Part shown: piece by piece, positions 11,978 through 57,013 of the stretch | Layout: each line of letters opens with the position of its first letter | Numbering within the stretch: position 1 is the first letter of the stretch | Virus record (IMG/VR): IMGVR_UViG_3300029118_000005 | Direction: 5' to 3' (one strand) | Origin: a virus | DNA length: 64,000 bases | Program-made: the position numbers and the translations under genes | Notes under the pieces: generated by a model | The model's database searches: none | Seen by the model: only the letters and a program-made list of their open reading frames with translations | Told to the model about the DNA's origin: nothing

Positions 11978-11979
11978 TC

Positions 11980-15698: not shown

Positions 15699-15703
15699 AG
15701 TGC

Positions 15704-16261: not shown

Positions 16262-16274
16262 GCGTACTCCTCCT

Positions 16275-16712
16275 TTAAACTATTAAGGCTATAATTGTTG
16301 TCGCTAAAAATACAATAGTTGTAAGCATAAATATTTTTTGATTGCGTTTTAGGCCATAAAGAGTGTTGAATGCATCGGCAACGATCATTTGCTCATTGGA
16401 ATACCGGGCTGTATAATTGCTGCCGAGTAGTTCTTTTAAAAAATCATCTTGTATGCGACTCAGGCGTTCAAAACGCTTTCGATAATTTCTAAGTTCCCAT
16501 CTAAGATCTATTTCTGTATAAGTACTCCATTTATCGCTTTGAATGGCTTCGCAAAACTTTTTGTATCCTTTGTATTCTTCACTACTTCGAATTACATGAG
16601 AAGAACAATTCAGAAATTCTTTTGCTTCTTCTAGGCGCAGATACTCCTCTCCTGTCCATATCATTACATTTAGACCATTTTTTGAAGCTTTTAAGGCGTC
16701 TTCGTATGTCAT
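16275..16712 (-). CDS. C-terminally membrane-anchored protein, unknown
   Basis: 145 aa with a terminal TM segment IFMLTTIVFLATTIIALIV. Confidence 0.4.
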   Translation of the reverse strand: MTYEDALKASKNGLNVMIWTGEEYLRLEEAKEFLNCSSHVIRSSEEYKGYKKFCEAIQSDKWSTYTEIDLRWELRNYRKRFERLSRIQDDFLKELLGSNYTARYSNEQMIVADAFNTLYGLKRNQKIFMLTTIVFLATTIIALIV

Positions 16713-20132: not shown

Positions 20133-20232
20133 CTGTTTTACCTCCTGTGCGATAATGTATTCCTGTGATTACAAATCAGTTGCCAGGCAGTCACAGGTTC
20201 TGCTTTTCGGGAGCTACCCTAGGCAACTGGAG

Positions 20233-20316
20233 CGCCGCGAGAAGGATTCGAACCCTCAGTCCTTTTACAGATCACTAGTTTTCAAAACTAGCCCAGTACC
20301 ATTGTGGCATCGCGGC
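20233..20316 (-). tRNA. tRNA-Ser (anticodon UGA)
   Basis: Reverse-strand cloverleaf. Acceptor is GCCGCGA/TCGCGGC. Anticodon stem CTAGT/ACTAG carries loop TTTGAAA. The variable arm is 17 nt and the T arm is GAGGG-TTCGAAT-CCTTC. No CCA is encoded. Confidence 0.8.
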
Positions 20317-20320
20317 AAGA

Positions 20321-20405
20321 CGCAATCGACAGGGGTTGAACCTGTAAGCCGAAGAAACGACCGACTCCTTAGCGGGGAGTTCCAATACCATTATGGGACG
20401 ATTGC
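20321..20405 (-). tRNA. tRNA-Ser (anticodon GCU), with C at position 33
   Basis: Acceptor is GCAATCG/CGATTGC. Anticodon stem ACTCC/GGAGT carries loop CCGCTAA. The variable arm is 18 nt and the T arm is ACAGG-TTCAACC-CCTGT. Confidence 0.7.
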
Positions 20406-20411
20406 AAAAAG

Positions 20412-21224
20412 TTAAATATTCCTCCATTCATCTTCCGAATATTCTTTTATTTCAGTTGACTTTTTAGGTAAATTGTATTTATCACACCATTTACGTATCG
20501 CATTGTCCGACACACCAAACATAATTCCGATCTGAGTAAATGGAACAGTCCTGATTAGTCTCTTTAACTCCTCACGGGTTATATTTCTTAATGGAGTGAT
20601 CGTTTTCTTTGGAGACTTTTTCTTCTTTTTCTTTTTTCTGTGATATTTTGAATAACAAAGATAGCAAAGATTGCTTTTATTGTTTTTTCTAATCGTTTTA
20701 CCACATTTTTTACATGTGTTTCTAGCTCTCTCTTTTATTCTTTCTTTTACTTTTTCTGAATTATATACTCCGAAGTTGTCTGTTAAACTATGACAATTAG
20801 GACATAGAATTTGCAAGTTTTCCAACGAATTGTTATCATGATTTCCATCAATATGATGTAATTGTAATTTAATCGGTTTTCCCATCCATTCGGAATTTCC
20901 ACACAATTCGCATCTTTTTTCTTTATACCCAAGTTCTATGAGCTTATTTTTAAGTTTGTGACTATTAACTTTTGTATTTGGCATCAACTTTGACTGAATG
21001 TCATAAACTTCCTTTCGATTTTGGTTGCATTTCAGTATATAATTGCGTTTATTTTCTTCAAATTTAGTGGTATCTAAATTGTATTCTTCTATGATTCTTT
21101 TTAGTGTTACAGTACTACTCGCACTTTTTATTCCTGCTAATTCCAATATTGATTTATATGTACTATGCGTGTCAATCAAGGATTGTAATTCTTCAGGAGT
21201 GAAATTATACAGCTTACTACTCAT
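20412..21224 (-). CDS. HNH homing endonuclease with C-terminal HTH
   Basis: CELCG...LHHIDGNHDNNSLENLQILCPNCH is the HNH motif. Inserted between the two tRNA groups. Confidence 0.8.
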   Translation of the reverse strand: MSSKLYNFTPEELQSLIDTHSTYKSILELAGIKSASSTVTLKRIIEEYNLDTTKFEENKRNYILKCNQNRKEVYDIQSKLMPNTKVNSHKLKNKLIELGYKEKRCELCGNSEWMGKPIKLQLHHIDGNHDNNSLENLQILCPNCHSLTDNFGVYNSEKVKERIKERARNTCKKCGKTIRKNNKSNLCYLCYSKYHRKKKKKKKSPKKTITPLRNITREELKRLIRTVPFTQIGIMFGVSDNAIRKWCDKYNLPKKSTEIKEYSEDEWRNI

Positions 21225-21281
21225 TTAGACTCCTTTTTATATCGTAAGAGAATTCTTATAAGAATTATCTGTTGCTAATAT

Positions 21282-21352
21282 TGCGGAGAGATGGACTTGA
21301 ACCATCAACTCTGGCGTATGAAGCCAGCAAGCTCCCTTTGCTCTATCCCGCA
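21282..21352 (-). tRNA. tRNA-Met-like (anticodon CAU), imperfect acceptor stem
   Basis: Anticodon stem CTGGC/GCCAG carries loop TTCATAC. T arm is GATGG-TTCAAGT-CCATC and D arm is GAGC-AAAGGGA-GCTT. The acceptor strands pair only partly in either register. Confidence 0.45.
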
Positions 21353-21353
21353 G

Positions 21354-21425
21354 TGAGTGATAGGAGACTCGAACTCCACAGTCTTAATTAAAGGTTAAGT
21401 GCTCTACCAGCTGAGCTAATGGCAC
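21354..21425 (-). tRNA. tRNA-Lys-like (anticodon UUU), poorly paired acceptor stem (possible pseudo-tRNA)
   Basis: D arm is GCTC-AGCTGGTA-GAGC. Anticodon stem CTTAA/TTAAG carries loop CCTTTAA, and the T loop is TTCGAGT. Acceptor GTGCCAT versus ATCACTC pairs at about 4 of 7 positions. Confidence 0.4.
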
Positions 21426-21427
21426 AA

Positions 21428-21498
21428 CAGGGCTAGTTGGACTCGAACCAACAGTGCAGGAATCAAAATCCTGTGCCTTACCATTTGGCGATAACCCC
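21428..21498 (-). tRNA. tRNA-Gln (anticodon UUG)
   Basis: Acceptor is GGGGTTA/TAGCCCT (two G-U pairs). D arm is GCC-AAATGGTAA-GGC. Anticodon stem CAGGA/TCCTG carries loop TTTTGAT. T arm is GTTGG-TTCGAGT-CCAAC. Confidence 0.8.
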
Positions 21499-21513
21499 AG
21501 CGTGATCTTATCC

Positions 21514-26233: not shown

Positions 26234-26310
26234 TCTATGCCGCCTCCTTCCTTTCTAGCTTTTTGTCGTGAATAAATATGGTTAAACCTTAGCCTTTCCC
26301 CTTCAAACGT

Positions 26311-26352
26311 CTTCTAGCCGCCTTCTGTGCCCTTCTAGCGCCCTTCTGTGTG
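26311..26352. repeat. Two tandem 21-bp repeats (CTTCTAGCCGCCTTCTGTGCC / CTTCTAGCGCCCTTCTGTGTG)
   Basis: Read directly, about 80 bp upstream of the TerS-like start. Confidence 0.8.
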
Positions 26353-26520
26353 TGCTCATCGTGTCCAGCTCTCGTCTGTGTCCGTCCTGGCTGTCTGTCC
26401 TGACTGTGTGCCGTCCTCATCTGCCGCCTGTCTGTGTATCTCTCGTCTGTTGGCTGTCTCTGGCTTGATCATCTGTCAGTTGTCAACTGTCAGCTCCTGC
26501 ACTCTGTATCTGTATATACT
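26340..26520. repeat. Strand-asymmetric CTGT/CTGTC-rich, A-poor low-complexity tract
   Basis: Recurring words are TCTCGTCTGT, GGCTGTCT and CTGTCAG. Contains the palindrome CAGTTG-T-CAACTG near 26477-26489. Confidence 0.75.
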
Positions 26521-26765
26521 TAGATACACTATACACATACCTACTTACTAGATATCTATATACAGTACATACAGATATACTATACATATACCTTGTACAT
26601 ACTGTATCTATACATACTCACCTTATATATACTGTACATATATACCTTATACAGACATACTTAATATATATTATCAGATAATATATTAAATATACCGATA
26701 GTATATTAAATATATATACCATATACATATACAGTAAATATATATACTGTATATATTATATATAA
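26520..26765. repeat. G-poor TATACA/ATACTGTA low-complexity tract
   Basis: Many ATACTGTAT / ATACAGTAT words. Includes a perfect inverted repeat TACAGTA-N8-TACTGTA at 26730-26751. Confidence 0.75.
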
Positions 26766-26797
26766 GGAAGCGACACGGAAAAGCTGTAGGCCTGGGG

Positions 26798-26928
26798 AAA
26801 AGAAAAAAGCCCACGACCAGAAAAAGAAGCACCGTGTTTCAGCACGGCTTGGAATCTTTTCCGATCATGGGCTATATACTCTATATATCCATATCTAGGC
26901 TACATATAAATACTATATATAGTAGCTT
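26798..26928 (-). ncRNA. Candidate small RNA ending in a long branched terminator
   Basis: Minus-strand promoter has TTGATT (26958-26963), 17 nt, then TATTAT (26935-26940). The outer stem GCCCAUGAUCGG/CUGGUCGUGGGC pairs fully only in the minus-strand RNA (three G-U pairs). It encloses hairpin AAGCCGUG/CACGGUGCUU and is followed by UUUUUUCUUUU. Confidence 0.35.
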
Positions 26929-27028
26929 GATTACATAATACAACAATATGAGGTGTAAATCAAGTTAAATATTTTTAAAAACGCAAGTTGCACAAATTGA
27001 ATATAACAATTTAAAAGTCAGAAAACAT

Positions 27029-27056
27029 AAAAAAGACAATCCACTTTTGGATTGCC
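27029..27056 (-). terminator. Rho-independent terminator after 27064..27666
   Basis: Reverse strand reads GGCAATCCA-AAAG-TGGATTGTC followed by TTTTTT. Confidence 0.7.
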
Positions 27057-27063
27057 TTAGAAA

Positions 27064-29625: not shown

Positions 29626-29928
29626 ATGAAGAGAACAAAAAATATGATTTATAAGGCATCCGATGAAGCAAGAGAGCTGTTTTTATATGCTACTAACTCA
29701 GGCGTTTTGTATGATCGCCAGATTAAGCCGAGTATCGAAAACCTCAGAAAAAAAGCAAGAAAGGGGACCTTTGATAAAGACAAGGCGGCAGACCTCTTTT
29801 ACTATGTAGCCACAAGCGCTTCGGCCATGTATAATAGAGATTTTGGATTTAGCTTTTCTGTCCAGCAGCGCTTTACAGCCGCGGTTGATATGGTTGATTT
29901 TTACATTGATGAAATAGAAGAGATTTAA
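29626..29928 (+). CDS. Hypothetical protein
   Basis: 100-aa ORF with AAAGGAAG RBS. Confidence 0.45.
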   Translation: MKRTKNMIYKASDEARELFLYATNSGVLYDRQIKPSIENLRKKARKGTFDKDKAADLFYYVATSASAMYNRDFGFSFSVQQRFTAAVDMVDFYIDEIEEI

Positions 29929-30006
29929 GCCGAAACGCCCAAGGCTGGGCGTCCGTTGGGGATTGCCTCCCAGCGCTGATGATGGCAGGCAAGAAAGGGA
30001 AAAGTT

Positions 30007-30369
30007 ATGACAACATTACACATTATTAAGTTAAGTGAGAACGCCCCAGCTATGGCGCACGGTTTCCACTATAACGTCCAGATCTGGACGAAGGACAGCG
30101 GCCGTGGCTGGTGCTATGCCGGAAATGGTAAGTTTTTAAAGGCTGCAGATGAGGTTCTGAGATATGGCAAGGAACACGCCGAGTTTTACAGTGATGACAT
30201 GTACAAGGATTTTTACGCCTGTATGAGTGAGGAAGACGTTGTATATTTTGTAGGGGTTTACAAGTGGCACGCCTTCCGCGTATATCCAGACGGAAAAATT
30301 ACAAAGGCAACTGAGCAAGAACGCGAATTGGCCGGAAAATGGCTTGAAAGAGAGAAAGGAAAGCGATGA
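30007..30369 (+). CDS. Hypothetical protein
   Basis: 120-aa ORF. Its N-terminal half is paralogous to the next small ORF. Confidence 0.45.
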   Translation: MTTLHIIKLSENAPAMAHGFHYNVQIWTKDSGRGWCYAGNGKFLKAADEVLRYGKEHAEFYSDDMYKDFYACMSEEDVVYFVGVYKWHAFRVYPDGKITKATEQERELAGKWLEREKGKR

Positions 30370-31316: not shown

Positions 31317-31377
31317 AACACACATATGTACTGTTATTTTGCAATAGTGCATATTGACAAAGAAAGGAAGGGCAAAC

Positions 31378-32283
31378 ATGAATTGGGAAAATTTGCTGAA
31401 AGTGTATGAAAATATGGGTGTTGAGGATATTATCCCAATAGCCCATACAAGAATTTTACCACATATAAAGGTATTGCTCGATGAAAATGGAAATTACATA
31501 GGGGCGATGTTAAACGGTAAAGACCGTTTTACTATTCCGTGCACCATTGAATCTGAATCAAGAACAAGCGGAAACAATCCACATCCGATTCATGACAATA
31601 TGCAATATTTGTCGGCAGACTATAACAAAGAAAAACACGATAAATATATGGAACAATTAGAAGCCTACATTTCTAAAGTAGATGACAAATTGGCAAAATC
31701 AGTATACAGATTTGTTCAAAAAGGATTGATGAGGGATGTTTTACAAGGATTTCTAAAAAAGATTCCTTATCCAGAAGAAAAAACTGTGGTTTGTTTTGTG
31801 ATGGCTCCGCAGGAAGAATTGATAAGAGCAAGTTTTAGTGGGGAATATGAAAAATATTGCCTAAATCTTCTTCGATCAGGAGACGGGCAAAACAAGCAAT
31901 GGAAAGACTATTATCTTAGCAGTTTGGAACCAAATGGAATGTGTAGCATTACAGGAAATAACGATTTTATTCCTGCAACTTATCCGAAGGGTATTAGATT
32001 TGCAGGTGATGGAGCAAAACTTTTTATTGCGTCATCTCGTAATATTATGTTGGAAGGAATGCCGGCCCTTGCACCTGGTTACATAGCGTCGCAAAAAATA
32101 CTGCATACGCTTCAATGCCTATGCTTTGAGGGACCACAATGGGCAAATCAAGTAATGCGTGACAATTTAAAATCTGTTAAAGAAATTGATTTAACAGCAG
32201 ATGAAGAGAAAGTAGTGGAAAGGTATATAAAAAACATACTTAAAGAAAGTAAGACGTGTCAAATAACTCCTGACTGTAAATAA
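31378..32283 (+). CDS. cas8c: Cas8c/Csd1-like protein, N-terminal ~300 aa only (truncated type I-C Cascade large-subunit homolog)
   Basis: Likely start is ATG 31378. Four segments are collinear with Firmicute Csd1 as I recall it: NWENLLKVYEN, IIPIAHT, TIPCTIESESRTSGNNPHPIHDNMQYLSADY, and CSITGN..P..YPKGIRFAGDGAKL...GYIASQKILHTLQCL. The protein ends about 300 aa short of canonical length. Confidence 0.55.
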   Translation: MNWENLLKVYENMGVEDIIPIAHTRILPHIKVLLDENGNYIGAMLNGKDRFTIPCTIESESRTSGNNPHPIHDNMQYLSADYNKEKHDKYMEQLEAYISKVDDKLAKSVYRFVQKGLMRDVLQGFLKKIPYPEEKTVVCFVMAPQEELIRASFSGEYEKYCLNLLRSGDGQNKQWKDYYLSSLEPNGMCSITGNNDFIPATYPKGIRFAGDGAKLFIASSRNIMLEGMPALAPGYIASQKILHTLQCLCFEGPQWANQVMRDNLKSVKEIDLTADEEKVVERYIKNILKESKTCQITPDCK

Positions 32284-32388: not shown

Positions 32389-33297
32389 ATGACTGGTAAA
32401 TATAATATTCAGATAGGCGATGTATTTGGGCAATGGGAAGTAATAGGGCAAGGCAGCAAGCCCTATTACTCAAAGTGTAGATGTACTTGCGGTACGATTA
32501 GAGATGTAAGCAACAGATCTCTTTGCGCTGGTGATTCTAAATCTTGTGGATGCAATAAGGAATACTTAAAAGCCAGACGAAAAGAATCTTCTGTTAAGAC
32601 TGGTGATCGTTTCGGAATGTGGAAGGTGATTGGTGAATCAAGTAGACCGTATTCAGTTCTATGCAAATGTGACTGTGGGACAGTTAGAAACGTATATAGT
32701 CGTATGCTATTAGCAGGTAAATCTAAATCTTGTGGGTGCAATAAGGAGCATGTAAAAACTACCTCTAAAAAAATATCCGAAACCAACTTGAGAATTGCAC
32801 AGAAAAAAGTCGGAACTAGTATCAATGGATTTAAAATTGTAAGTATTTTTAAGAAAAAGGGGGAGAATGTTTTTTATTGCAAAGCTATATGCCCAGTTTG
32901 CGGAAAAGAAACAGAAACCCAGTTGTCCAGATTGAAAAAAAATTATATGTGTGTAAATTGTAACCGTAATAATGGGGACTTTTTGAAAGAAATACAGAAA
33001 AGCTGCTATGTGGATGGTTCTTGCTTGCCAAGCATTAGATCAAGAGAAAATGGAACTGTCAACAAAAATTCTAGTACAAAAGTAAACGGGGTTTCGCTTC
33101 AAAAAGACGGAAGCTATAGAGCATATATAACATTTAGACATAAACAATATCATTTGGGAGTATATGCTAGTCTGGAAGAGGCAGCATCGGCACGCAAAGA
33201 GGCTGAAAAAAAGCTCTTTGGTGAATACATAAAGAGTCATCAGGGATGGGAAGATGAGCTAAAAGAAATCGGAAAGAGACATAGAAAAAAACCATAA
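32389..33297 (+). CDS. AP2-domain DNA-binding protein with repeated zinc-ribbon modules
   Basis: The module W.VIG....Y...C.CGT.R.V....L..G.SKSCGCNKE occurs twice. The C-terminus GVSLQKDGSYRAYITFRHKQYHLGVYASLEEAASAR is an AP2 pattern. Confidence 0.6.
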   Translation: MTGKYNIQIGDVFGQWEVIGQGSKPYYSKCRCTCGTIRDVSNRSLCAGDSKSCGCNKEYLKARRKESSVKTGDRFGMWKVIGESSRPYSVLCKCDCGTVRNVYSRMLLAGKSKSCGCNKEHVKTTSKKISETNLRIAQKKVGTSINGFKIVSIFKKKGENVFYCKAICPVCGKETETQLSRLKKNYMCVNCNRNNGDFLKEIQKSCYVDGSCLPSIRSRENGTVNKNSSTKVNGVSLQKDGSYRAYITFRHKQYHLGVYASLEEAASARKEAEKKLFGEYIKSHQGWEDELKEIGKRHRKKP

Positions 33298-33304: not shown

Positions 33305-33337
33305 TAGGGATAGAATCAAATCTATCCCTATTATTTT
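33305..33337 (+). terminator. Rho-independent terminator of the plus-strand island
   Basis: TAGGGATAG-AATCAAAT-CTATCCCTA followed by TTATTTT. Confidence 0.75.
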
Positions 33338-33408
33338 ACAGTTCTTGACAGTATTTTACATTACTTTACATTATTATACATTATTTTACATTAAAATAAT
33401 GTCAAAAT
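33331..33408. repeat. Junction motif copy A: six 10-bp-phased TTTACA-type repeats ending in the palindrome ACATTAAAATAATGT
   Basis: ttattttaca|gttcttgaca|gtattttaca|ttactttaca|ttattataca|ttattttaca|ttaaaataatgtcaaaat. Confidence 0.8.
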
Positions 33409-35954: not shown

Positions 35955-36746
35955 TCAGCAGTTGCAACCACTATTGCATCCGCATCCGTAAGCATAGCCA
36001 TAGAGATTAGATGCCGGGAAAGACGGTACTGGAGTAGGTCTTACAGCGTCAATAATCTGATTGGTCTGCGCAGCCATTGCTGTGGTGAGCAGTGCACTCT
36101 GGCGATCCTGTGAAGCAGCTCTGCGAAGATCATTGTTCTCAGCCTGCAAGGTGGCAATCTTGTCCTGGCAAAGGTAGTCAAGGATGCTTCTCACACCTGC
36201 ATTTTGGTTGTCAATAATATCTCTGGTGTTGTTGTTCATAGTGTTCTGCAATGCGCAAGTGTTGGTTGCCATATTGTAATTTACACCCTGAATAGCTTCG
36301 CGTGTCTCGCAGCAGCAGTTAGCTAACTGTGCCTGCAGAGCATTTGTATTTTGCATATTAGCTACGGTATCAGCGTTGATAGCCTGCTGAATGCCATATC
36401 CAGTCTGCATGATGTTTGTGTTGATTCCATTAAATCCGGTTAACATGCTATTGTTAACTGCGTAGAATCCATCACAAATACCATTGTTGATTCCGTCTAA
36501 CTTTCCAACGATCGCTTGGTGATCAAAACCACGCTGAATTGCGCTATCTGTGTAGGCTGCCGCGGTAGAACCCATGCCACCACCGTTATTGCCCCAACCG
36601 CCGAAGCCATTACCCCAGCCGAAAATGGCAAAAATCAAAATGATCCAGATCCATCCCCAACCGTCGTTGCCCCAGCCACCGCTGTTGTTGCCGTTACCAT
36701 CAATGCTAGCCACTAATGGTACACTACAGTTTCCTGAGTTAAACAT
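35955..36746 (-). CDS. Membrane protein with G/W-rich N-terminus (YjcZ-like) and Cys-rich C-terminus
   Basis: Likely start is ATG 36746 with GGAGG RBS. Contains GGWGNDGWGWIWIILIFAIFGWGNGFGGWGNNGGG, a Q/N-rich core, and ends YGCGCNSGCNC. Confidence 0.5.
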   Translation of the reverse strand: MFNSGNCSVPLVASIDGNGNNSGGWGNDGWGWIWIILIFAIFGWGNGFGGWGNNGGGMGSTAAAYTDSAIQRGFDHQAIVGKLDGINNGICDGFYAVNNSMLTGFNGINTNIMQTGYGIQQAINADTVANMQNTNALQAQLANCCCETREAIQGVNYNMATNTCALQNTMNNNTRDIIDNQNAGVRSILDYLCQDKIATLQAENNDLRRAASQDRQSALLTTAMAAQTNQIIDAVRPTPVPSFPASNLYGYAYGCGCNSGCNC

Positions 36747-36808
36747 ACTATTTACCTCCGTAATATTTTTTATATACATAATCTTGCGCAAGAATTAGTA
36801 TCATGTTT

Positions 36809-37765: not shown

Positions 37766-37799
37766 ACAAAAAGAGCTGCCAGATAAACTGACAACTCTT
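37766..37799 (-). terminator. Rho-independent terminator of the cas8e-like/HTH operon
   Basis: Minus-strand RNA reads AAGAGUUGUCAG-UUUAU-CUGGCAGCUCUU (12 bp including 2 G-U pairs) followed by UUUG. Confidence 0.7.
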
Positions 37800-37809
37800 T
37801 CAAAGAATA

Positions 37810-37875
37810 TTTTACTGTAAATAAATGTCAAATATTGTTAAATAAAGTTAAATAATGTAAAGAAATGTAAAATAC
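37810..37875. repeat. Junction motif copy B (inverted orientation), lying in the 3' UTR between the HTH stop and the terminator
   Basis: TTTTACTGTAAATAAATGTCAAAT ... AATAATGTAAAGAAATGTAAAATAC. Confidence 0.75.
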
Positions 37876-37879: not shown

Positions 37880-38113
37880 TTACAACATCTGCAATTCCTC
37901 TCCGGTGTCCTTTGATGTGAGTTTGATAGAAACGTCATATCCTAATGCTTCGGATATCTGGCGTATATCACTTTCTCTAAAATTATTTAATCTAAGCTTT
38001 TTGGACACGTTAGATTGAGAGCACCCTAACAGTTTTGCAAGCTGAACTCCGTCCATCTCTTTCTTAAACATTATTGTTTTTACAATGTTCGAAAATGTGT
38101 TTTTGCTTTCCAT
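37880..38113 (-). CDS. XRE-type HTH protein (aca-like position)
   Basis: The ATG abuts the TAA of the cas8e-like gene, and the RBS GGAGGAAGG lies inside that gene. The HTH is GVQLAKLLGCSQSNVSKKL. Confidence 0.65.
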   Translation of the reverse strand: MESKNTFSNIVKTIMFKKEMDGVQLAKLLGCSQSNVSKKLRLNNFRESDIRQISEALGYDVSIKLTSKDTGEELQML

Positions 38114-39673
38114 TTACTCACCTTCCTCCTTCGGTTTAAGATCTGCCTTGTAAGAGCTTAAATGTTCTTCTATAGTTTCAAGACTATTGGATTCCTCTGG
38201 AATCAATCGGTTGAGATAATATAAAAAAGAATTATAAGCCTTTGCTGTGCAATAATACTTTTCCTTGCCATTCACCGTAACTATTCGACCTCTAAATGAT
38301 GTCGGGGATGCATTATCAATTAAAGATTTAGAAAAGTCCAGTGCAGACTGCTTGACCATTCTTAGAAAATATTCAAATGCGGTGGCGCTTGATGAAAGAA
38401 ATCTGGACCAAATCAAATCTAGGTTACTAGAAAACTCATATTTTTTAAGTTCAGTCGGATTCTGCTTGCCACTAGCCATCTGAATATTGTAGGATAATAC
38501 ACCAATTTCATTTGTAATATAACGGCATAGTTCAATGGCAACAGATATGTAATCTGCAAAGTTAGGATCGAGATTCGCTGTAAATCTTTTTGAACATTCA
38601 TCGACAAACTTCATTGCCTTAGAGTCATACATCATTCCACAAGTTTGAAAGCCTGCGTTGCTAATTCCGATTAAGCGCAACCATGTAACAGTGTCTTGAT
38701 TGCTGTAAAGTATCTTGTCGAGTAGTTGCCACAATGGAACATCGTTAAATAAGCGAAGTGGTTTAGCACTGTTACTATTTAAAATGTAAAGTGCCATGGT
38801 TTCAGCTACAACACGTTCTTTATCAAAAAACTCCCCACCCAATGCATTAAATCCGGTTATGACCCCATTTTCACGCTTGAGAAATATCCTGCGCGATTGG
38901 TGCGTGAATAATTCCGCTGGGTTAGAAGGTGGATCAATCTTTTTGCGCTCATCGGATCGTGGCGAGCATTCCCATATTGGGCAAGGCTTAGGCCACAATT
39001 CTCCATTACCATTCTGTAAAGGAACTAGGTTCATCATAAGTGTTTCAAAAAGATTTCGCCCGATTGCGTAAACAATAGTATTTTGCCCCAACCATCCAAT
39101 ACTGATTGAAGGCAAGCCTGTCCTACTTGGCTTTACAGAAACATCGTCATACCCGTTGATAAAAAGAAGCCATCTAGCCGCTTCTGCATATGTTAGTTGC
39201 ATTTTTGCTTCTCCACTTCTTGCTGCAAAAATTCGTACCTTGTTGTTGCTTTCAGAAATTTCTCCGTTTAACTTTGCAGCACCAAAAGCAGTTCCTTTTT
39301 TAGCTTCGTTTGCCTGATAGAATGGAGCATCAGGATGAAAAAGCCAGAAACGTTCTCTGTATTCTTCTAAATATTTTAAAAACGTTTCTGGAAAATGACC
39401 GAGACTCCAATAACTTTTCCAACGGCTGATTGCTTCATCCCTGTTTGAAAGTGGAATTTCATCACCGTTTGAGTCGAATCTTGCGAATCCAGAATGAGCA
39501 ATTGCAAGAAGTAGCCGTATCATTGCGACATTTTGAGTATCTGTTTCACCTGCCAAATCCATGTATTCATGACTGCGGGCGAAAACTTCTTTAAGTGAAA
39601 CTTCTTTAATAGTATAATTTGGAAGCAATACACGCACCCAGTTTTCATCAAGCAAATTAAATTCTTTCTTCAT
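38114..39673 (-). CDS. cas8e: Cas8e/Cse1 (CasA)-like protein, full length, orphan
   Basis: Six segments are collinear with E. coli and T. thermophilus CasA as I recall them: FNLLDENWVRV, VAMIRLLLAIAH, GHFPETFLKYLEEYRERFWLFHPDAPFYQ, LTYAEAARWLLF, GRNLFETLMMNLVP and CPIWE. 519 aa. Confidence 0.75.
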   Translation of the reverse strand: MKKEFNLLDENWVRVLLPNYTIKEVSLKEVFARSHEYMDLAGETDTQNVAMIRLLLAIAHSGFARFDSNGDEIPLSNRDEAISRWKSYWSLGHFPETFLKYLEEYRERFWLFHPDAPFYQANEAKKGTAFGAAKLNGEISESNNKVRIFAARSGEAKMQLTYAEAARWLLFINGYDDVSVKPSRTGLPSISIGWLGQNTIVYAIGRNLFETLMMNLVPLQNGNGELWPKPCPIWECSPRSDERKKIDPPSNPAELFTHQSRRIFLKRENGVITGFNALGGEFFDKERVVAETMALYILNSNSAKPLRLFNDVPLWQLLDKILYSNQDTVTWLRLIGISNAGFQTCGMMYDSKAMKFVDECSKRFTANLDPNFADYISVAIELCRYITNEIGVLSYNIQMASGKQNPTELKKYEFSSNLDLIWSRFLSSSATAFEYFLRMVKQSALDFSKSLIDNASPTSFRGRIVTVNGKEKYYCTAKAYNSFLYYLNRLIPEESNSLETIEEHLSSYKADLKPKEEGE

Positions 39674-39689
39674 ATATATCCTTCTTTCT

Positions 39690-39718
39690 ACAGTTCTTTA
39701 CATTAAAATAATGTCAAA
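39690..39718. promoter_or_regulatory. Junction motif copy C: operator/promoter element upstream of the cas8e-like gene
   Basis: ACAGTTCTTTACATTAAAATAATGTCAAA. The palindrome ACATTAAAATAATGT lies at 39700-39714. The reverse strand carries TTGACA. Confidence 0.6.
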
Positions 39719-39723
39719 TAAGG

Positions 39724-41178
39724 TTAAATACTGTTATTTACTAATATATATATTTCTTGCAATGCGTAATCTATATTTATACGGCTCAAATATCCGATTT
39801 TTGCATTCCAATCTTGAGCCTGTGCAATCATGGCATAATACAGTTTGTGGCTCAGGTGAGCAGTTACGAAGAACACAAAGTCAGATTTTTTTAATGCAGC
39901 GTTGCGCACAGTGCTGACATTTCCTGCACTGATATATTGCCAATCCGGAAGATAAGTTTTAAGCTTCTTTATCAAGTTTGGATACCCTCCAACAATTGTA
40001 CCACTAATGTTTTTTAATTGCTGAATTTGCTCTTTAGATAGCTTATTTGCAATTTCGGTTTCCGAATCAGATTCCAGTGAAAACATATGCTCTCGTAAAG
40101 CATAAAGCTCCCTACGTTCACCCTCTACCTTTTGCAGTTCGGATTTTAGTGCATCATTCTTCTGCTTGAGTAGATTTATCTCATCAGATAAGCGCTGAAC
40201 CTGCTCAGTACAAGCTTTTTGTTCAGACATCCTGCGTTCCTGAGATTCAGATAATGCAGATTTGGCTTGAAGCAATTCATTTTTAATGCTCTCTACTTCA
40301 ATATACACGTCTTCACGATTGTGTTGGAAGTAGTATTCTTTAGACTGCTTATATGCCTTACACATAGCTAATATATAGCTCGTATATTTTGCATAAGTCA
40401 GGAAATCCTCACGTATTCCTCCTCTTTTTCCGTGCGTATAAGCAATTGCTAGTGCTTCCAGATCTTCATGTGTGAACTGTAATTCAGAAAAAATAGAAAC
40501 GCTTGAAAGTGACTCAATGTCAAACACGGTAGTGTATCCAAATTCCTCATCTTTTGGTGCTAACTGGATCTGCTTAAATAAATCTTTTGGAAGTTGACTA
40601 ATGTATGATTTTGCTCTTTCCTGAAAAGCACAGTCATATTTCTTTAAGCCTTTTTGTATTCTGCGTTCTGGATTGTATCCGTAGTTTGCAATAAAGCAAA
40701 GTAATTCATCACATTTTTTACGTTCTTGCACTAACTCTTGCGGCCACATATTTAAAAAGTAATAGCCTGCAAATAAATGGCCATTAAAATTATCGTCCGA
40801 AACATGATCTGACTTTGCAAGCTTTGCATAAATGACTTCTCCGATTACACTATCAAAATGAAGCGGTTCGTCTTTTGGAAGCCTTTTAAAAATGTTGTAT
40901 AGCTTTCTGTATCCCTTTTTGAAAAGAATATCCAAAGAAGTCTGTGCTTGTTCATCTTCTGTGTAGCTATATTCGACGATTCCGAGTGCTTTTTTATAAG
41001 CTTCTTCTGTTTGCAAAGACAGCTCTTCCGAAAATAAAGTATTGTAATATTCGCTCTGCTTTGCAGCATTATAATAAGCTACAGCATTCTTGCCATATTC
41101 GCTTTCTAAATCTAATCGTATATGGCGTGCAAACGCGATAGCGCAAGCGTAAAACGGTATCAAGTTTACTTGCTCCAT
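39724..41178 (-). CDS. Coiled-coil protein with C-terminal DUF2325-like domain
   Basis: 484 aa with GGAGG RBS. The central coiled coil is followed by a C-terminus GTIVGGYPNLIKKLK...SDFVFFVTAHLSHKLYY...KIGYL that fits the DUF2325 pattern. Confidence 0.5.
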   Translation of the reverse strand: MEQVNLIPFYACAIAFARHIRLDLESEYGKNAVAYYNAAKQSEYYNTLFSEELSLQTEEAYKKALGIVEYSYTEDEQAQTSLDILFKKGYRKLYNIFKRLPKDEPLHFDSVIGEVIYAKLAKSDHVSDDNFNGHLFAGYYFLNMWPQELVQERKKCDELLCFIANYGYNPERRIQKGLKKYDCAFQERAKSYISQLPKDLFKQIQLAPKDEEFGYTTVFDIESLSSVSIFSELQFTHEDLEALAIAYTHGKRGGIREDFLTYAKYTSYILAMCKAYKQSKEYYFQHNREDVYIEVESIKNELLQAKSALSESQERRMSEQKACTEQVQRLSDEINLLKQKNDALKSELQKVEGERRELYALREHMFSLESDSETEIANKLSKEQIQQLKNISGTIVGGYPNLIKKLKTYLPDWQYISAGNVSTVRNAALKKSDFVFFVTAHLSHKLYYAMIAQAQDWNAKIGYLSRINIDYALQEIYILVNNSI

Positions 41179-41757: not shown

Positions 41758-41807
41758 CAGTTCTTTACATTATTAACCCTTTTTTAAATGTCAAATAATG
41801 TAAAGAA
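41758..41807. repeat. Junction motif copy D: perfect 12-bp inverted repeat TTCTTTACATTA - N23 - TAATGTAAAGAA
   Basis: The arms lie at 41761-41772 and 41796-41807. Preceded by ACAG, as in copy C. Confidence 0.8.
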
Positions 41808-42176
41808 TTATAGATCATGTGTCCGCATGTATTCCTCGATGGCAAAGCAAGCAAATCCTGCTAGGGTGCGGCCTGACTTACGAGCGGCTTCTGAAAAGGC
41901 TGCCTTTTGCGATTCAGTACACGATACACTGAACTGAATCTTACGCTCAGCTGCAGGGACTTCTCTGCGCCCTACATACCCACCATTTGGACCAATCTTT
42001 GGAGTTGGGTTATATCCAGGCGTATACACTCTGTTTGGATCAACTGGAGCGGAGACAAATACTGATTTTTTTTCCACCGGCTGGATGCTTGGAATTTCAG
42101 TTTCGCCAGTATCTGCAAAATCAATGCCGGCTGTCACATCAAAAGAAGTGGTGGTGGTGTTATCTTTCTTTCTCAT
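41808..42176 (-). CDS. Ribbon-helix-helix DNA-binding protein (HicB-C-terminal / ParG-like)
   Basis: The C-terminus KIQFSVSCTESQKAAFSEAARKSGRTLAGFACFAIEEYMR is an RHH pattern. Confidence 0.5.
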   Translation of the reverse strand: MRKKDNTTTTSFDVTAGIDFADTGETEIPSIQPVEKKSVFVSAPVDPNRVYTPGYNPTPKIGPNGGYVGRREVPAAERKIQFSVSCTESQKAAFSEAARKSGRTLAGFACFAIEEYMRTHDL

Positions 42177-42189
42177 ATCAAATTACTCC

Positions 42190-42318
42190 TTAATAAGTCA
42201 ATGTTTCTTCCAGTCTAGTTTCCTCTACTGGAGTTGCGTCTGGAAAATCTACGAACTCCAAATGGTAGCAATTGCCACAGTTTTTTAATGTGGCTGGATA
42301 AAAGTATCTTTTTTCCAT
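42190..42318 (-). CDS. HicB N-terminal-like fragment (42 aa)
   Basis: MEKRYFYPATLKNCGNCYHLEFVDFPDATPVEETRLEETLTY resembles the HicB N-terminus (YSYPA...Y.V.FPD..G..T.G.TLEEA). GGAAAGAGGA RBS. The stop overlaps the RBS of the RHH gene. Confidence 0.35.
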   Translation of the reverse strand: MEKRYFYPATLKNCGNCYHLEFVDFPDATPVEETRLEETLTY

Positions 42319-42393
42319 AAATCCTCTTTCCACGCCCTGTTAGACGCTTTTTTATTTGCCTTGCTGAGATTTTTTATAATCTTTCGGTCACAA

Positions 42394-42720
42394 TCACAAC
42401 CAGCAGGCAAAACCCGCCTTCCGAAGGTACTTTTCTCTATCCATTCGGAAATCCCTTCGTGGCAGGTTCTTATTTATGCTTTCTAAGTATGCCTTACGAC
42501 AAGCGTCTGTCGTGAGTTTCTTTGATAGATAGTCGTAGCAAAGACCCCACCCATCAAAAAAAACATTGACACTTTCGAGAGCCGCTATAACCTCGGACTC
42601 TGTTTCTGCACCCTTGCTTGCGGCAATTATCTCGTCGCAAGTTTTGGTGTACTTGTCATGCTCTCGGTACTCCTCAAACACATTTACAGTAAAAGCATCT
42701 TCTCTCATAACAAACCTCAT
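42394..42720 (-). CDS. Hypothetical protein downstream of parA
   Basis: 108-aa ORF. Confidence 0.4.
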   Translation of the reverse strand: MRFVMREDAFTVNVFEEYREHDKYTKTCDEIIAASKGAETESEVIAALESVNVFFDGWGLCYDYLSKKLTTDACRKAYLESINKNLPRRDFRMDREKYLRKAGFACWL

Positions 42721-42818
42721 TTCTCCCCGTTTTGGCGATAGGACACCAGTTATTATTATTTGTTTTGCGTTGTGGCTATAACCACGTTTCCGCCAATAAA
42801 AGATATATTTAATATCCC

Positions 42819-43586
42819 TTATTGGCAGAATCTAAGTAGTTCTTTTGTGAACTGCATATAGTCAATGGCAGCGTTACACTTTGAATCAAATTTCATGAGA
42901 GTTGTTCTGGTTGCCTGTGCCTTTTGTACAGCAATGCTTTCACGAATAGTTGTGCAAAAAACCTTTGTGTTGAGCTGCTTGGCAATTTCTTCTAAAGAAT
43001 TTTTAACTTCCTGAGCGAGGAGTTGACGGCTCTTATATTTTACTAGTAAGAGTCCTGCAACCTCTAGGTTAGGATTATTTCTTTTCTTTACGCCTGTGAT
43101 GGTTCTGTTAAGTTCTGAGAGGCCTTGAATAGCATAACGGTCTGCAGTGACAGGAATGATGACTTTGTTAGAAGCAATTAAACAGTTTTTAAGCAATTTG
43201 TTGTCAGCCGGAGCTGTATCAATAATAACATAGTCATAGCCAGTTAATTCAGCAAGAGCATCTTTTAGTCTAAAATACTCGTTCCCGTCACTTGGGAATC
43301 TTTGATCTGCTGTTTTCAGCTCTGGATCGGATGCGACTATGTCACCGATTTCTGTTTTTTGAATAGCTTCCGCAATTGGAAGTGGATCTTCAATGTCTAA
43401 AATAACATCGTAGAGAGTTGCCGTATCTTTGGATACTGCTCTATAAGTATCAGTGCTGTTACCCTGCGGATCAGCGTCAACCAGTAAGACCTTCTTGCCT
43501 TGCGACATTAAAATTGACGCAAGTGTAGTGGCTGTTGTGGTTTTTGCAATGCCGCCTTTTTGATTTGCAATGCATATTACTTTCAT
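42819..43586 (-). CDS. parA: ParA/Soj-family partition ATPase
   Basis: Deviant Walker A (IANQKGGIAKTTT) and LLVDADPQGN. 255 aa with AAGGAGG RBS. Confidence 0.85.
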   Translation of the reverse strand: MKVICIANQKGGIAKTTTATTLASILMSQGKKVLLVDADPQGNSTDTYRAVSKDTATLYDVILDIEDPLPIAEAIQKTEIGDIVASDPELKTADQRFPSDGNEYFRLKDALAELTGYDYVIIDTAPADNKLLKNCLIASNKVIIPVTADRYAIQGLSELNRTITGVKKRNNPNLEVAGLLLVKYKSRQLLAQEVKNSLEEIAKQLNTKVFCTTIRESIAVQKAQATRTTLMKFDSKCNAAIDYMQFTKELLRFCQ

Positions 43587-43600: not shown

Positions 43601-43672
43601 TGTGATTACATTATTCTACATTATTTTACAATTCTTAACCCAATTTGACATTTCTTTACAGTAAAATAATGT
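43601..43672. repeat. Junction motif copy E: 10-bp-phased TTTACA-type array upstream of parA
   Basis: tgtgattaca|ttattctaca|ttattttaca|attcttaacc|caatttgaca|tttctttaca|gtaaaataatg. Collinear with copy A. Confidence 0.8.
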
Positions 43673-43701
43673 TTTTTCCTTTCTCAGTTATAGCATACAT
43701 T

Positions 43702-43738
43702 GTTAGAACTAAAAAGTCAATAGTTAGAACTAAAAAGT
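43702..43738. repeat. Two 16-bp direct repeats GTTAGAACTAAAAAGT (21-bp period)
   Basis: Read directly from the sequence, between motif copies E and F. Confidence 0.85.
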
Positions 43739-43766
43739 TATAAAAAATATCTTTAAGGTTATACGT

Positions 43767-43795
43767 GTGACATTTCTTTACAGTAAAATAATGTT
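43767..43795. repeat. Junction motif copy F (GTGACATTTCTTTACAGTAAAATAATGTT)
   Basis: 28 of 29 nt identical to 43648-43676 in copy E. Confidence 0.8.
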
Positions 43796-54348: not shown

Positions 54349-56397
54349 TTAAAATTTAACTTTCATAATACGTTCTGTCGCGCCCTTGACTTTAACAACC
54401 AATTCTGCTCTTTTAGTCATGCTAAAGCCAATTCCAGACAGCTGGTCATACGCATCCTCTACATGGCACTTCGCACCTAAAGCTTCAAACACTCTTTTAT
54501 GTGGTTCAAGCTCATGCTTTAAGAACTCGTTATAGTATCCGTTTGGTTCTTCTGTGTTCTTGCATCCCTTTAAGAAGAAGAACAAATGCCTGTGACCAAT
54601 TCCGTTCTGATTATCAAAATAATTTGGACTATAGCTAATCACTGATACAGGCACAAACTGATTGGTACTTACTCCCCAGATTTCTTTGCTAATGGTCTCA
54701 GATGTCGTAGGAAGAATCGGTTTAATTGTGAACTTTCTATTTTTATCCATTGTTACCTCAGCAATTTTGATTTTGCCCACAACTGGATGTGGATAGCTAA
54801 AGCTATAAGTCTCCTCGCCAAAAGCAATCTCAGCGGAAAATCCTTTTGACCCTCTTGCATCAAACTGATTAACATAGAATTTGTATGTTCCAGGAATCAT
54901 TCGATTGTAATTGCTCCAAACAATATTCTCAACAGATGGAACTCCTGGTCTTTGACTCATTGGCTCTCTAATGTCAATATCCAAATTTCCGCCAGTTCGA
55001 CCATGTTTATCCGCAAAATAGATTTCGTTGCCGTTTGGTTCTTTGCAATGAGCATCCAAATCACTATTGTCGTCTTGACCATCATTCCACTGGATAGAGA
55101 ATCGAAGCACTCCATCAACCTTTCCTCCGGCATCCTTTACATTCTTGCGGATATCAGAATCAGTGATATTTCCACTATAAGCCCAACTTAAAGGATTGTT
55201 CCATTTAAACATTGACCTTGCATCCTTATTTACTGGGGCAATCAACGAGACAAAATTAGAAGCATGTTTATTTTCAACAAAAGCTTCTAATTCTCTAGCT
55301 GTAGGAAGCACCTTGTCAATGAAATCCTGTGCTGAAATTTCTTCAACTTTAGAGAACTTTTTTGGATTTACCACTACCTCCTTCTCCATCTGACCAAAGA
55401 TGTCATCTGCTCCGACGATTCTTTTTGCAGCATCTTTGTTTGAAAACAGGATATTATTGACTGTAATATCATCAAGATTGGCAAAGCGACGTTGAAGAGC
55501 ATCCATATATCCCAATTCCGCGATTGTCTTCTTTGCATCTTCTAACATCTTTTTCGTAAAAATTGCTTTGACTCTCTTGTAGTTTGCCGGAGCTACAATT
55601 ACTTCATACTTTCGAACAGCTTGATCGAGATCCATCCCCTTACTAATATTGACAAGCAAGGTTCCAATGGAATGATTTCTAATTCTGCCAATTACCGGAC
55701 CCACTTCTGCTGACTTTTCCCATGCAAAAAGATCTTTCTGGGAATCAGGCAGTTTTTCATATATCCTCTTATATTTCTTGAACTCAATTAACTGAATCTT
55801 CCACTCTTCACCCTTATACAGCGTGTTCGAATTGATTAACTCAAGTACTGTGTCAACAGCCTCCATACTAATTTCATCAAGCGAATGTTTGAATACGTTC
55901 TTGGTGTCTCTATATTCGGCACAAATACTCTCGTTAGATTTGCCACTCCTGTTTACCCATTTGCCTGGCAAATCTAAAAACATATGTGTCCACTCATGAG
56001 ATCTTCCATTGATTTCTTCAAAATCATGGTCAGTTCCAACTCTTTTGAATTTACTAACAAAAATGTCAGAAATTGCATTCCCCTTTATAAAAGCGTCTAA
56101 AGCATCACACACTTTCTGGAACTCTTCGCTGCCGGCATCAAATCCCCAAATTGTATGAATTGTACCATCCTTAATAGTTACAGCAGCTCCAATGCTCTTG
56201 ACAAAATGTCTGCAGCAACTGCAATCATACTCTCGGCGCTTTCTGAACAAAATGTTTGTACCAGGTCCAAAACTGTCCAAATATAAATTCCACATTTCAT
56301 CCTTGTCCACATTTACGATGTATAGTTGCTTGCAGCCTTTCATTTCATCTTCAAAATGTTTCTGCATTCTTGACCTAAAAATATCAAAATTATCCAT
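54349..56397 (-). CDS. Large conserved phage/plasmid protein of unknown function
   Basis: 682 aa. The N-terminus carries ...LYLDSFGPGTNILFRKRREYDCSCCRHFVKSIG. The C-terminal beta-rich segment carries LRFSIQWNDG..DLDAHC..P.G..IYF....GGNLDIDI...VENIVW. Confidence 0.5.
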   Translation of the reverse strand: MDNFDIFRSRMQKHFEDEMKGCKQLYIVNVDKDEMWNLYLDSFGPGTNILFRKRREYDCSCCRHFVKSIGAAVTIKDGTIHTIWGFDAGSEEFQKVCDALDAFIKGNAISDIFVSKFKRVGTDHDFEEINGRSHEWTHMFLDLPGKWVNRSGKSNESICAEYRDTKNVFKHSLDEISMEAVDTVLELINSNTLYKGEEWKIQLIEFKKYKRIYEKLPDSQKDLFAWEKSAEVGPVIGRIRNHSIGTLLVNISKGMDLDQAVRKYEVIVAPANYKRVKAIFTKKMLEDAKKTIAELGYMDALQRRFANLDDITVNNILFSNKDAAKRIVGADDIFGQMEKEVVVNPKKFSKVEEISAQDFIDKVLPTARELEAFVENKHASNFVSLIAPVNKDARSMFKWNNPLSWAYSGNITDSDIRKNVKDAGGKVDGVLRFSIQWNDGQDDNSDLDAHCKEPNGNEIYFADKHGRTGGNLDIDIREPMSQRPGVPSVENIVWSNYNRMIPGTYKFYVNQFDARGSKGFSAEIAFGEETYSFSYPHPVVGKIKIAEVTMDKNRKFTIKPILPTTSETISKEIWGVSTNQFVPVSVISYSPNYFDNQNGIGHRHLFFFLKGCKNTEEPNGYYNEFLKHELEPHKRVFEALGAKCHVEDAYDQLSGIGFSMTKRAELVVKVKGATERIMKVKF

Positions 56398-57013
56398 TGA
56401 TCATATCTCCTTCCTCATAGTTCTCAACACTGATAAGCTCCATAAACTTATCTCTCTGGCGCTCTGAAACCTTGTTACCCTGCTTTTCGGGCTTAACAGC
56501 AATTGTAAGGTGTTTCTCAGCAATAGATGATAATTCCTTAGCTAGCGATTTCTTGCCTTGCTGTATGCCCTCAAAGTAGCTTCTAGGTTGCTTTCTGTCT
56601 CCTATAGTTCCACTTGAACGGTTTTCACCTTGTCCACCCAGACTAACATTCCGAAGTTGATAGCCATTTTCTGCATAAAATCTGATGTAATACTTTTCCT
56701 GCTCGTCAAGCTGATCAATAGGAACATTCATGTATTCAACCTTCCACCCGTAAGGATTGTCCGCTGAATACAGTTTGTGCTTTCTAAGGCTCAGGTCTAT
56801 GTGCTGTTTGTAGCCAACCATATGACTTGCCAACCTGCTAAGTATGTGCATGGCTTGCCCGACATACGCAAACTGGAAACCGTTCTCATCCTTTCTGGTC
56901 AAAATGTAGATCCCACTTGCGTCGTTCAGCTGGGGATTGATTTTCAGCAGTCGCTTCTTGTTCTCCTGCTCTATGGCTTTTGCCTTTGCAATGTTCTTGC
57001 ATTTATTCATCAA
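56390..57013 (-). CDS. GIY-YIG nuclease-domain protein (free-standing homing-endonuclease-like)
   Basis: GIYILTRKDENGFQFAYVGQA....RLASH plus YYIRFYAENGYQLRN. Confidence 0.65.
   Translation of the reverse strand: MMNKCKNIAKAKAIEQENKKRLLKINPQLNDASGIYILTRKDENGFQFAYVGQAMHILSRLASHMVGYKQHIDLSLRKHKLYSADNPYGWKVEYMNVPIDQLDEQEKYYIRFYAENGYQLRNVSLGGQGENRSSGTIGDRKQPRSYFEGIQQGKKSLAKELSSIAEKHLTIAVKPEKQGNKVSERQRDKFMELISVENYEEGDMING

Follow-up and report, generated by a model that had tools for sequence, protein, structure and literature searches.

A solo, full-length Cas8e-like gene in a gut phage predicted to infect Lachnospiraceae, a candidate anti-CRISPR

A full-length cas8e-like gene in a tailed phage

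The stretch of DNA analyzed here (the window; 64,000 nucleotides of IMG/VR virus record IMGVR_UViG_3300029118_000005) encodes a homolog of Cas8e/Cse1, the large subunit of the type I-E Cascade complex, followed on the same strand by a small helix-turn-helix (HTH) gene. The window belongs to a tailed phage: it encodes a portal protein, a large terminase, a major head protein, a Mu-F-like protein, and an endolysin, together with replication initiators, two DNA methyltransferases, an SbcC-like protein, ParA, and an RHH protein. The two genes are as follows.

38114..39673, minus strand: solo cas8e/cse1-like gene; 519 aa, full length, with an N-terminal domain and a C-terminal helical bundle (from the open reading frame [ORF], profiles, and structural model)
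37880..38113, minus strand: HTH gene; 77 aa, with weak matches to HTH families in Pfam and to transcriptional-repressor families in PHROG

The 519-aa protein matched the Pfam family PF09481 (CRISPR_Cse1) with an E value of 7.7e-70 and 236.7 bits (cut-off, 24.7), residues 6 to 442 aligning with profile positions 1 to 427 of 450. TIGR02547 matched the N-terminal half only (E value, 2.9e-36; 125.5 bits against a cut-off of 70.05), four Cas8e models in PADLOC matched with a best E value of 5e-68, and a sequence search of the PDB returned the solved Cse1 proteins of T. fusca, T. thermophilus, and A. ferrooxidans (best E value, 1.9e-28). A PHROG profile search of the protein gave zero family matches. 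The Cse1 assignment is confirmed far beyond chance.

An AlphaFold2 model of the protein, built from an input alignment of 32 sequences, had a predicted local distance difference test score (pLDDT) of 82 and a predicted template modeling score (pTM) of 0.85. The top 23 Foldseek matches of this model in the PDB were all Cse1/Cas8e chains aligned along their full length, including those of the E. coli and T. fusca Cascade complexes, and the comparison with T. fusca 3WVO gave a template modeling (TM) score of 0.76 over ~540 to 560 aligned columns. Because these matches extend along the full length, the model indicates a complete two-domain large subunit rather than a fragment. An earlier annotation made from the letters of the window without database searches (the sequence-only reading) had proposed a full-length Cas8e/Cse1 homolog on the strength of six peptide blocks shared with Cse1; all six are present in the translation, and the profile searches and structural superposition that it had suggested as checks bear the proposal out.

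No other type I-E gene or array accompanies cas8e

The same reading had seen no cas3, cse2, cas7, cas5, cas6e, cas1/2, or CRISPR array in the 64 kb, which tblastn and repeat searches upheld. When the eight proteins encoded by L005, a complete cellular I-E operon, were compared with the window by tblastn, Cse1 alone matched (E value, 3e-123; 41.6% identity). A cse2-like match at 13910-14341 (E value, 0.002) was spurious, the site encoding an endolysin (ELLD plus SH3). Neither the window nor the phage loci contained CRISPR-like repeats, the I-E repeat consensus, or solitary I-E repeats; the idea of an RNA anti-CRISPR made of solitary I-E repeats was dropped on the same result.

Since the window spans ~64 kb of a ~90-kb genome, the remaining ~26 kb were covered by walking outward from both ends in related IMG/VR contigs (contig 081304, for example, was tiled at 1-16613, 33832-55388, and 59235-89774). 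In the ~3.7 Mb of relatives' flanks there was no Cas3, Cse2, Cas7, Cas5, Cas6e, Cas1, or Cas2 and no CRISPR array. The only repeats in the extended loci that resembled an array, of 63 bp, were perfect tandem copies lying in frame within a tape-measure-like ORF. The rest of the genome, as represented by these relatives, thus lacks the remaining I-E genes and the array that would make this an ordinary phage-borne CRISPR-Cas system, an outcome the sequence-only reading had allowed for.

The gene therefore does not belong to a complete I-E operon (cas3, cse2/cas11, cas7, cas5, cas6e, cas1, and cas2 plus an array). It is a cas homolog carried by a virus outside any cas operon or array, as shown by the phage hallmark genes and by 64 IMG/VR loci. 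The description of the gene as an orphan holds as far as type I-E is concerned; the window nonetheless has a second cas-derived gene, a Cas8c fragment at 31354-32283, which that description had missed.

The only other INPHARED record with a homolog is MT835722 ("Bacteriophage sp."; 36% identity), which is unrelated to the window phage and carries no orphan. This GenBank virome scaffold (MT835722.1; L423) holds a complete type I-E operon at 3863-13038, cas3 through cas2; the operon is phage-borne unless the scaffold is bacterial DNA in the virome.

The phage genes form a clade apart from cellular Cas8e

In IMG/VR, 64 loci have the window's cas8e at 92 to 97% identity, on contigs of up to ~92 kb, and one 90%-identity cluster has 1,306 member sequences; a 95%-identical fragment came from human feces. 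A homolog search across 5.8 billion proteins returned a tight group (P0001 to P0007) at 47 to 96% identity, followed by cellular Cse1 proteins at 38 to 43% identity over ~94% of the length. All group members whose contigs were read are solo and lie in phage-like contexts, with genes for ParA, Bro-N, an integrase fragment, RRXRR, and AcrVA2-like proteins. One homolog at 42% identity (P0013) lies inside a cas3-cse1-cse2-cas7-cas5-cas6e-cas1-cas2 operon with an array.

A neighbor-joining tree placed the phage Cas8e clade apart from 26 cellular proteins in 200 of 200 bootstraps. Bootstrapping on residues 301 to 519 alone gave saturated distances (a numerical warning) and was not relied on.

The ratio of nonsynonymous to synonymous substitution rates (omega) was 0.17 across 42 distinct phage cas8e alleles, and every 60-codon segment was at or below 0.36. 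Purifying selection therefore acts along the whole of cas8e, which marks it as a functional gene and not a decaying passenger. The most constrained part (~140 to 165; omega, 0.05) aligned, weakly, to the L1 loop of the E. coli protein.

Divergence from the cellular proteins is concentrated after residue 300

Identity between phage and cellular proteins varied strongly along the length. For residues 1 to 300 it was 52%, against 60% between cellular proteins; for residues 301 to 369 it fell to 18% (45% between cellular proteins), and for residues 370 to 519 it was 24% (34%). Nearly all residues that are invariant in both the phage and the cellular clades lie within 1 to 300. Residues invariant among the cellular proteins are replaced in the phage clade (H308, D309, Q313, R316, G350, F360, D362, F422, R423, W425, W436, and G456), and the phage protein has five short deletions, after residues 302, 327, 339, 369, and 428.

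In the AlphaFold2 model, residues 339 to 367 form the last beta-hairpin of the N-terminal domain, right before the helical bundle. The glutamine-wedge element of Cas8e pries DNA open beside the protospacer-adjacent motif (PAM), and in an hhalign alignment to E. coli CasA, which was weak (probability, 58%; 18% identity), the wedge residue Q354 falls on the hairpin tip, where the cellular relatives have YGDKDFF and the phage protein has YDSKAMK. We tentatively regard residues 301 to 369, including the 339-367 hairpin, as the possible equivalent of the E. coli "glutamine-wedge" hairpin. The E. coli landmarks G157-G161, K268, and Q354, used for the PAM-reading and wedge elements (Gly loop, Lys finger, and Gln-wedge hairpin), were mapped onto the phage protein through the same alignment; firm assignment of PAM residues from it was dropped because the alignment was too weak.

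The predicted host genus has type I-E CRISPR-Cas

IMG/VR predicts the Lachnospiraceae genus KLE1615 as the host of the window's phage family. The GTDB genus "KLE1615" is Anthropogastromicrobium and includes A. aceti, which has a complete I-E operon. In a search of 185,579 species genomes, the top cellular Cas8e was that of Anthropogastromicrobium aceti H6_35 (E value, 2e-123; 42% identity), so the predicted host genus carries the cellular Cas8e that is closest to the phage gene. No copy of the phage-type Cas8e was found among these genomes. The comparison with a host I-E locus that the sequence-only reading had called for thus found a complete locus in the predicted host genus, with a Cas8e at 42% identity.

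We compared the phage with 1,073 spacers from arrays beside cellular I-E loci, which gave one strong match to the window.

56397..56429, minus strand: protospacer; 31/33 match (E value, 2.6e-8) to a spacer of a 75-repeat I-E array

The array belongs to a Lachnospiraceae metagenome-assembled genome (MAG; L074) that is labeled Acetatifactor and has a complete I-E operon. Another spacer of this array matched a phage relative at 29 of 33 positions. Spacers from A. aceti arrays (L005 and L138) gave no match of at least 26 nt to the phage.

The HTH gene and the intergenic elements

The following features flank the two genes.

39724..41178, minus strand: upstream 484-aa gene (phrog_11092), a variable neighbor that is missing in some relatives
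39674..39723, minus strand: 50-nt intergenic region upstream of cas8e, with TATTTGACATT (39710-39720) and an imperfect dyad, ACATTA-AAA-TAATGT (39700-39714)
37804..37874, minus strand: second copy of an AT-rich, 10-bp-phased promoter-like element (TTGACA-16-TATTCT), between the HTH stop codon and a hairpin
37770..37800, minus strand: terminator-like hairpin (inverted repeat), a 14-bp stem followed by a U-run, 80 nt past the HTH stop codon

The ATG of the HTH gene directly abuts the TAA of cas8e, so translation of the two is probably coupled, and a GGAGG lies inside the 3' end of cas8e, as the sequence-only reading had described. The linkage is present in all relatives at 92 to 97% identity and in the relatives at 80%, and we infer that the two genes are cotranscribed. 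The HTH gene is itself very conserved (omega, 0.03).

The inverted repeat at 37770-37800 was not called by a simple terminator consensus scan; RNA folding confirmed it instead (-28.1 kcal/mol; z score, -4.05). The sequence-only reading had described a terminator with a 12-bp stem; the stem measures 14 bp, and the hairpin with its U-run could end the cas8e-HTH unit.

Upstream of cas8e, the palindrome ACATTAAAATAATGT lies at 39700-39714 and overlaps a TTGACA box, again as described. It occurs at 5 intergenic sites in the window, where 0.5 would be expected; the ACATTA-N3-TAATGT sites lie at 33388, 39700, 42277, 43658, and 43780. Among 51 relatives, 44 keep the TTGACA motif upstream of cas8e and 13 keep the exact dyad; a promoter consensus scan of this region called no sigma-70-like -10 element with the TTGACA. 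The palindrome is held within the 10-bp-phased promoter-like element TATTTGACATT, exact copies of which lie at 37824, 39710, and 41787. An AT-rich family of such elements, with the dyad ACATTA-N3-TAATGT, is found in intergenic regions of the 33- to 44-kb block (33330-33402, 37804-37874, 39700-39736, 41787-41797, 42277-42291, and 43607-43794), and it is probably a shared regulatory signal.

The HTH gene persists in relatives that lack an intact cas8e. It is intact in L069 and L070 (10001-10354), where internal deletions have left residues 191 to 292 and 500 to 519 of Cas8e, in L166 (3893-3997), where only the last 35 residues are left, and in L068 (10001-11557), where cas8e appears to have two frameshifts. 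It is also intact in L061, where an IS607-like element of ~2 kb (a serine recombinase and a split TnpB; ~11550-13590) is inserted after cas8e residue 516, between cas8e and the HTH gene. In the deeper phage lineages L003 and L004, the HTH gene is not beside cas8e. The sole distant homolog found (40% identity) is a stand-alone divergent regulator in another phage (L218). In a scan that reaches close relatives only, the HTH gene was not found beside other anti-CRISPR (acr) genes, and its close homologs were confined to this phage group.

These observations bear on the proposal that cas8e and the HTH gene mirror an operon of an acr gene and an anti-CRISPR-associated (aca) gene. As in such operons, cas8e is followed immediately by a co-oriented HTH gene, with stop and start codons abutting, and an inverted repeat lies near a -35-like box. 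Unlike in such operons, the repeat is common to several intergenic regions of the window and poorly conserved upstream of cas8e, and the HTH gene persists where cas8e is reduced to remnants and is absent beside cas8e of L003 and L004. The adjoining, co-oriented HTH gene stands, and the acr-aca framing built on it is weak. The HTH protein is probably a conserved phage transcription regulator that is coexpressed with cas8e and need not be a dedicated Aca.

A Cas8c fragment in a variable slot

The second cas-derived gene of the window lies six kb from cas8e, on the opposite strand.

31354..32283, plus strand: orphan Cas8c/Csd1 (type I-C large subunit) N-terminal fragment; 309 aa, related to the first ~200 residues of Cas8c
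32389..33297, plus strand: HNH-endonuclease-like gene (phrog_374; E value, 6.8e-29), which travels with the Cas8c fragment as one cassette

The fragment matched Pfam family PF09709 at profile positions 1 to 213 of 559 (E value, 1.4e-18) and the Cas8c model in PADLOC (E value, 7.9e-29). It had zero matches among INPHARED phages. In the corresponding slot of the relatives, the fragment/HNH pair was found in 21 loci and an AcrVA2-like gene (PF26125) in 38, with both present in one. The AcrVA2-like gene of those 38 relatives is 5 to 8 kb from cas8e and not adjacent to it. The slot looks like a variable anti-defense hotspot. The Cas8c fragment, which lacks the C-terminal part, could be a dominant-negative I-C subunit.

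Other features of the window

A type II hammerhead ribozyme (Rfam RF02276) scored 52.4 bits, where the gathering score is 37. It lies at 29928-29994 on the plus strand and fits exactly between the small ORFs at 29626-29928 and 30007-30369 of the plus-strand accessory block. On the minus strand, at 20162-21499, an int-alpA RNA motif (RF02996; 50 bits) lies beside five tRNA genes (Ser-TGA, Ser-GCT, Met, Lys, and Gln) with an HNH-like ORF inside the cluster and a replication-initiator gene immediately downstream.

Two blocks of perfect tandem repeats, one of 12 bp x 3.8 and one of 22 bp x 3.8 (each with 100% identity), lie at 10059-10232, directly upstream of a replication-initiator-like gene (10324-11499, plus strand). 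They resemble iterons and, with the ParA and RHH genes (41808-43586), hint at plasmid-like maintenance. The ~800 bp of noncoding DNA at 26240-27060 are dense in overlapping degenerate repeats (periods of 11 to 30 bp), contain a run of AT dinucleotides, and may serve as an origin or in packaging. The minus-strand ORF at 35955-36791 encodes 278 aa; its N-terminal half is of low complexity and rich in Gly, Trp, and Asn, and its C-terminal tail is rich in Cys.

Discussion

We postulate that the phage Cas8e probably acts as an anti-CRISPR by subunit mimicry, most likely by being assembled into a defective I-E Cascade. A phage would have captured a host-type I-E large subunit that has long diverged since. 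During infection, the phage protein would compete with host Cas8e, docking on the body formed by Cas5e, Cas7e, Cas11, and CRISPR RNA (crRNA) through its conserved N-terminal 300 residues, including the L1-aligned region. The remodeled segment at ~301 to 369, which in the model comprises the last beta-hairpin of the N-terminal domain and the two preceding helices, would then yield a Cascade that fails to open or lock target DNA or that cannot license Cas3; the C-terminal bundle, too, is altered in places. Assembly into Cascade, the step that is blocked, and inhibition itself are what we infer from the analyses above. Several lines of evidence make a counter-CRISPR role the best reading: purifying selection on a clade of phage proteins distinct from the cellular ones, a complete type I-E system in the predicted host genus, a spacer against the phage in an I-E array, Acr-like genes nearby, and experimental precedents for mimics of Cas subunits.

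Several observations weigh against this interpretation. At 519 aa the protein is far above the typical size of an Acr, and since nothing is visibly truncated, it could still be a working large subunit. The assignment of the 339-367 hairpin to the wedge rests on the weak alignment (58% probability and 18% identity) and on matching topology, and neither the Gly loop nor the Lys finger gave a clear signal in the regions aligned to them. The one strong spacer match to the window came from the Acetatifactor-labeled MAG rather than from A. aceti. The AcrVA2-like neighbor is a Pfam-family call rather than a tested Acr, and the literature searched yielded no functionally tested viral Cas8e. Finally, cas8e is lost or frameshifted in L068, L069, L070, and L166 and is therefore dispensable, a property that many acr genes share.

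The concept of subunit mimicry, and the cas8e family of the window itself, have already been published. Katz et al. (bioRxiv 10.1101/2023.06.24.545427; Nature 2024) showed that orphan viral cas genes act as anti-CRISPRs and listed 358 of them. AcrIB3, a Cas5 homolog that is 38% identical to the host protein, and AcrIB4, a homolog of the C-terminal domain of Cas8b, both inhibit type I-B, and Cascade subunits still copurify with either one. AcrIB3 takes the place of Cas5, and the resulting complex does not bind DNA; the mechanism of AcrIB4 was left unresolved. Overexpression of genuine Cas5 or Cas8b did not inhibit (Katz et al. 2024). According to a 2026 review, the tested Cas-homolog Acrs are AcrIB3, AcrIB4, and AcrVIA2 only.

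Table S3 of Katz et al. has eight cas8e entries. One of them, IMGVR_UViG_3300045988_121492 (host, Lachnospiraceae KLE1615), is our locus L068, whose gene is 95% identical to that of the window and apparently frameshifted. The listed genes are of the same class as the window gene and partly of the same family, being lone genes on viral contigs, distant from arrays and cas operons; they differ in that the L068 entry is a partial tblastn match and that no cas8e orphan was analyzed or tested in that study. What is added here is the clade structure, the selection analysis, the regional remodeling, the link to host type I-E, the spacer match, and the paired Cas8c fragment.

Like the window gene, AcrIB3 and AcrIB4 of Listeria type I-B are homologs of Cascade subunits that are carried by phages or mobile genetic elements and form clades of their own, at a similar distance from the cellular protein (~38% identity there and 42% for the phage Cas8e). 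The difference lies in the subtype (I-B versus I-E) and in the part that is copied, a Cas5 copy or a 90-residue Cas8 tail in those cases and a full-length large subunit here. With canonical Cas8e (A. aceti H6_35, T. fusca 3WVO, and E. coli CasA) the phage protein shares the family profile, the two-domain fold, and a conserved stretch of 300 N-terminal residues that contains the FNLLDE..W start and the L1-loop-aligned region. Unlike them, it is encoded outside a cas operon, falls in a separate clade, and is remodeled at 301 to 369 and in parts of the helical bundle.

An alternative hypothesis is that the phage Cas8e is a working large subunit that hijacks host Cascade rather than killing it, whether by altering PAM specificity so that phage protospacers are spared, by making the complex bind DNA without recruiting Cas3, or by keeping or boosting immunity against competing phages. 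The complete fold with no truncation, the strong conservation of the L1-aligned region, and purifying selection that reaches into the remodeled region would all suit such a subunit. The ParA and RHH genes and the iteron-like repeats hint at plasmid-like carriage, in which protecting the host could pay, and Katz et al. raise a pro-immunity stage as a possibility. However, the phage carries no array or spacer in the window or in the relatives, its hotspot neighbors are anti-CRISPR-like rather than defense genes, the host genus already has its own Cas8e, and there is no precedent. We therefore consider hijacking unlikely. In a related and slightly less probable scenario, the phage protein re-tools host Cascade: the rebuilt wedge and PAM-proximal region would make the complex ignore phage protospacers while it still binds other DNA, or convert it to a Cas3-independent DNA binder for the phage to exploit. 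If this were true, then, with the Cas8c fragment counted in, "large-subunit replacement" would be a strategy that phages use generally against several type I subtypes.

Compared with assembly into a defective Cascade, action as a free decoy outside the complex is less likely, and we give it only a small chance. Such a decoy would titrate Cas3, Cas11, or Cas5 or occupy PAM sites on phage DNA. Cas8e is the subunit on which Cas3 docks and by which the PAM is read, and AcrIF3, which blocks recruitment of Cas2-3 by mimicking Cas8f, offers a precedent. AcrIF3 resembles the phage Cas8e as a viral protein that imitates a large-subunit surface (in its case the Cas8f helical bundle) against a step of type I interference, but it is a small protein that binds Cas2-3 and lacks detectable homology to Cas8f at the sequence level, whereas the homology of the phage Cas8e is obvious and full length. 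In structural work on type I-E, Cas3 is recruited to an R-loop-locked conformation of Cas8e within Cascade, so free Cas8e should bind Cas3 poorly. In known I-E structures, the N-terminal region of Cas8e faces Cas5e and the crRNA 5' handle; this is the best-conserved part of the phage protein, whereas divergence affects the parts that shift when the R-loop is locked.

Exaptation to a role outside CRISPR, for example as a DNA- or RNA-binding accessory of replication or partition that is regulated with the HTH gene, appears improbable. The gene does lie in a block with ParA, the RHH protein, and the SbcC-like protein, its linkage to the very conserved HTH gene is tight, and its middle region is heavily remodeled. 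Yet 52% identity to cellular Cas8e over 300 residues, the part that also holds nearly all residues invariant in both clades, is hard to explain without Cascade partners; cas8e is dispensable in some relatives; and no such role is known for any Cas8. Even though some virome records, such as MT835722 (cas3 through cas2), hold whole I-E operons, membership in a complete phage-borne system is refuted by the relatives' rest-of-genome check, which found no other cas gene or array, and a recent neutral passenger would hardly show only 42% identity to any cellular copy, an omega of 0.17, and a deep clade (47 to 96% identity) across different phage backbones; we regard both as very improbable.

Subunit mimicry, which we favor, would have several ramifications. 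If the phage Cas8e does inhibit type I-E, no earlier anti-CRISPR would have come from a full-length Cascade large subunit, and no earlier Cas-homolog inhibitor would have acted on this subtype, which is the best-studied one and is common in gut Firmicutes. Its full length, its abundance in the human gut, and its pairing with a Cas8c fragment make it a good experimental candidate, and the contrast between the conserved residues 1 to 300 and the remodeled residues 301 to 369 could reveal which change turns a subunit into an inhibitor. Because the family is abundant, with a cluster of 1,306 members and 64 IMG/VR contigs, it could shape phage-host dynamics in the Lachnospiraceae of the human gut.

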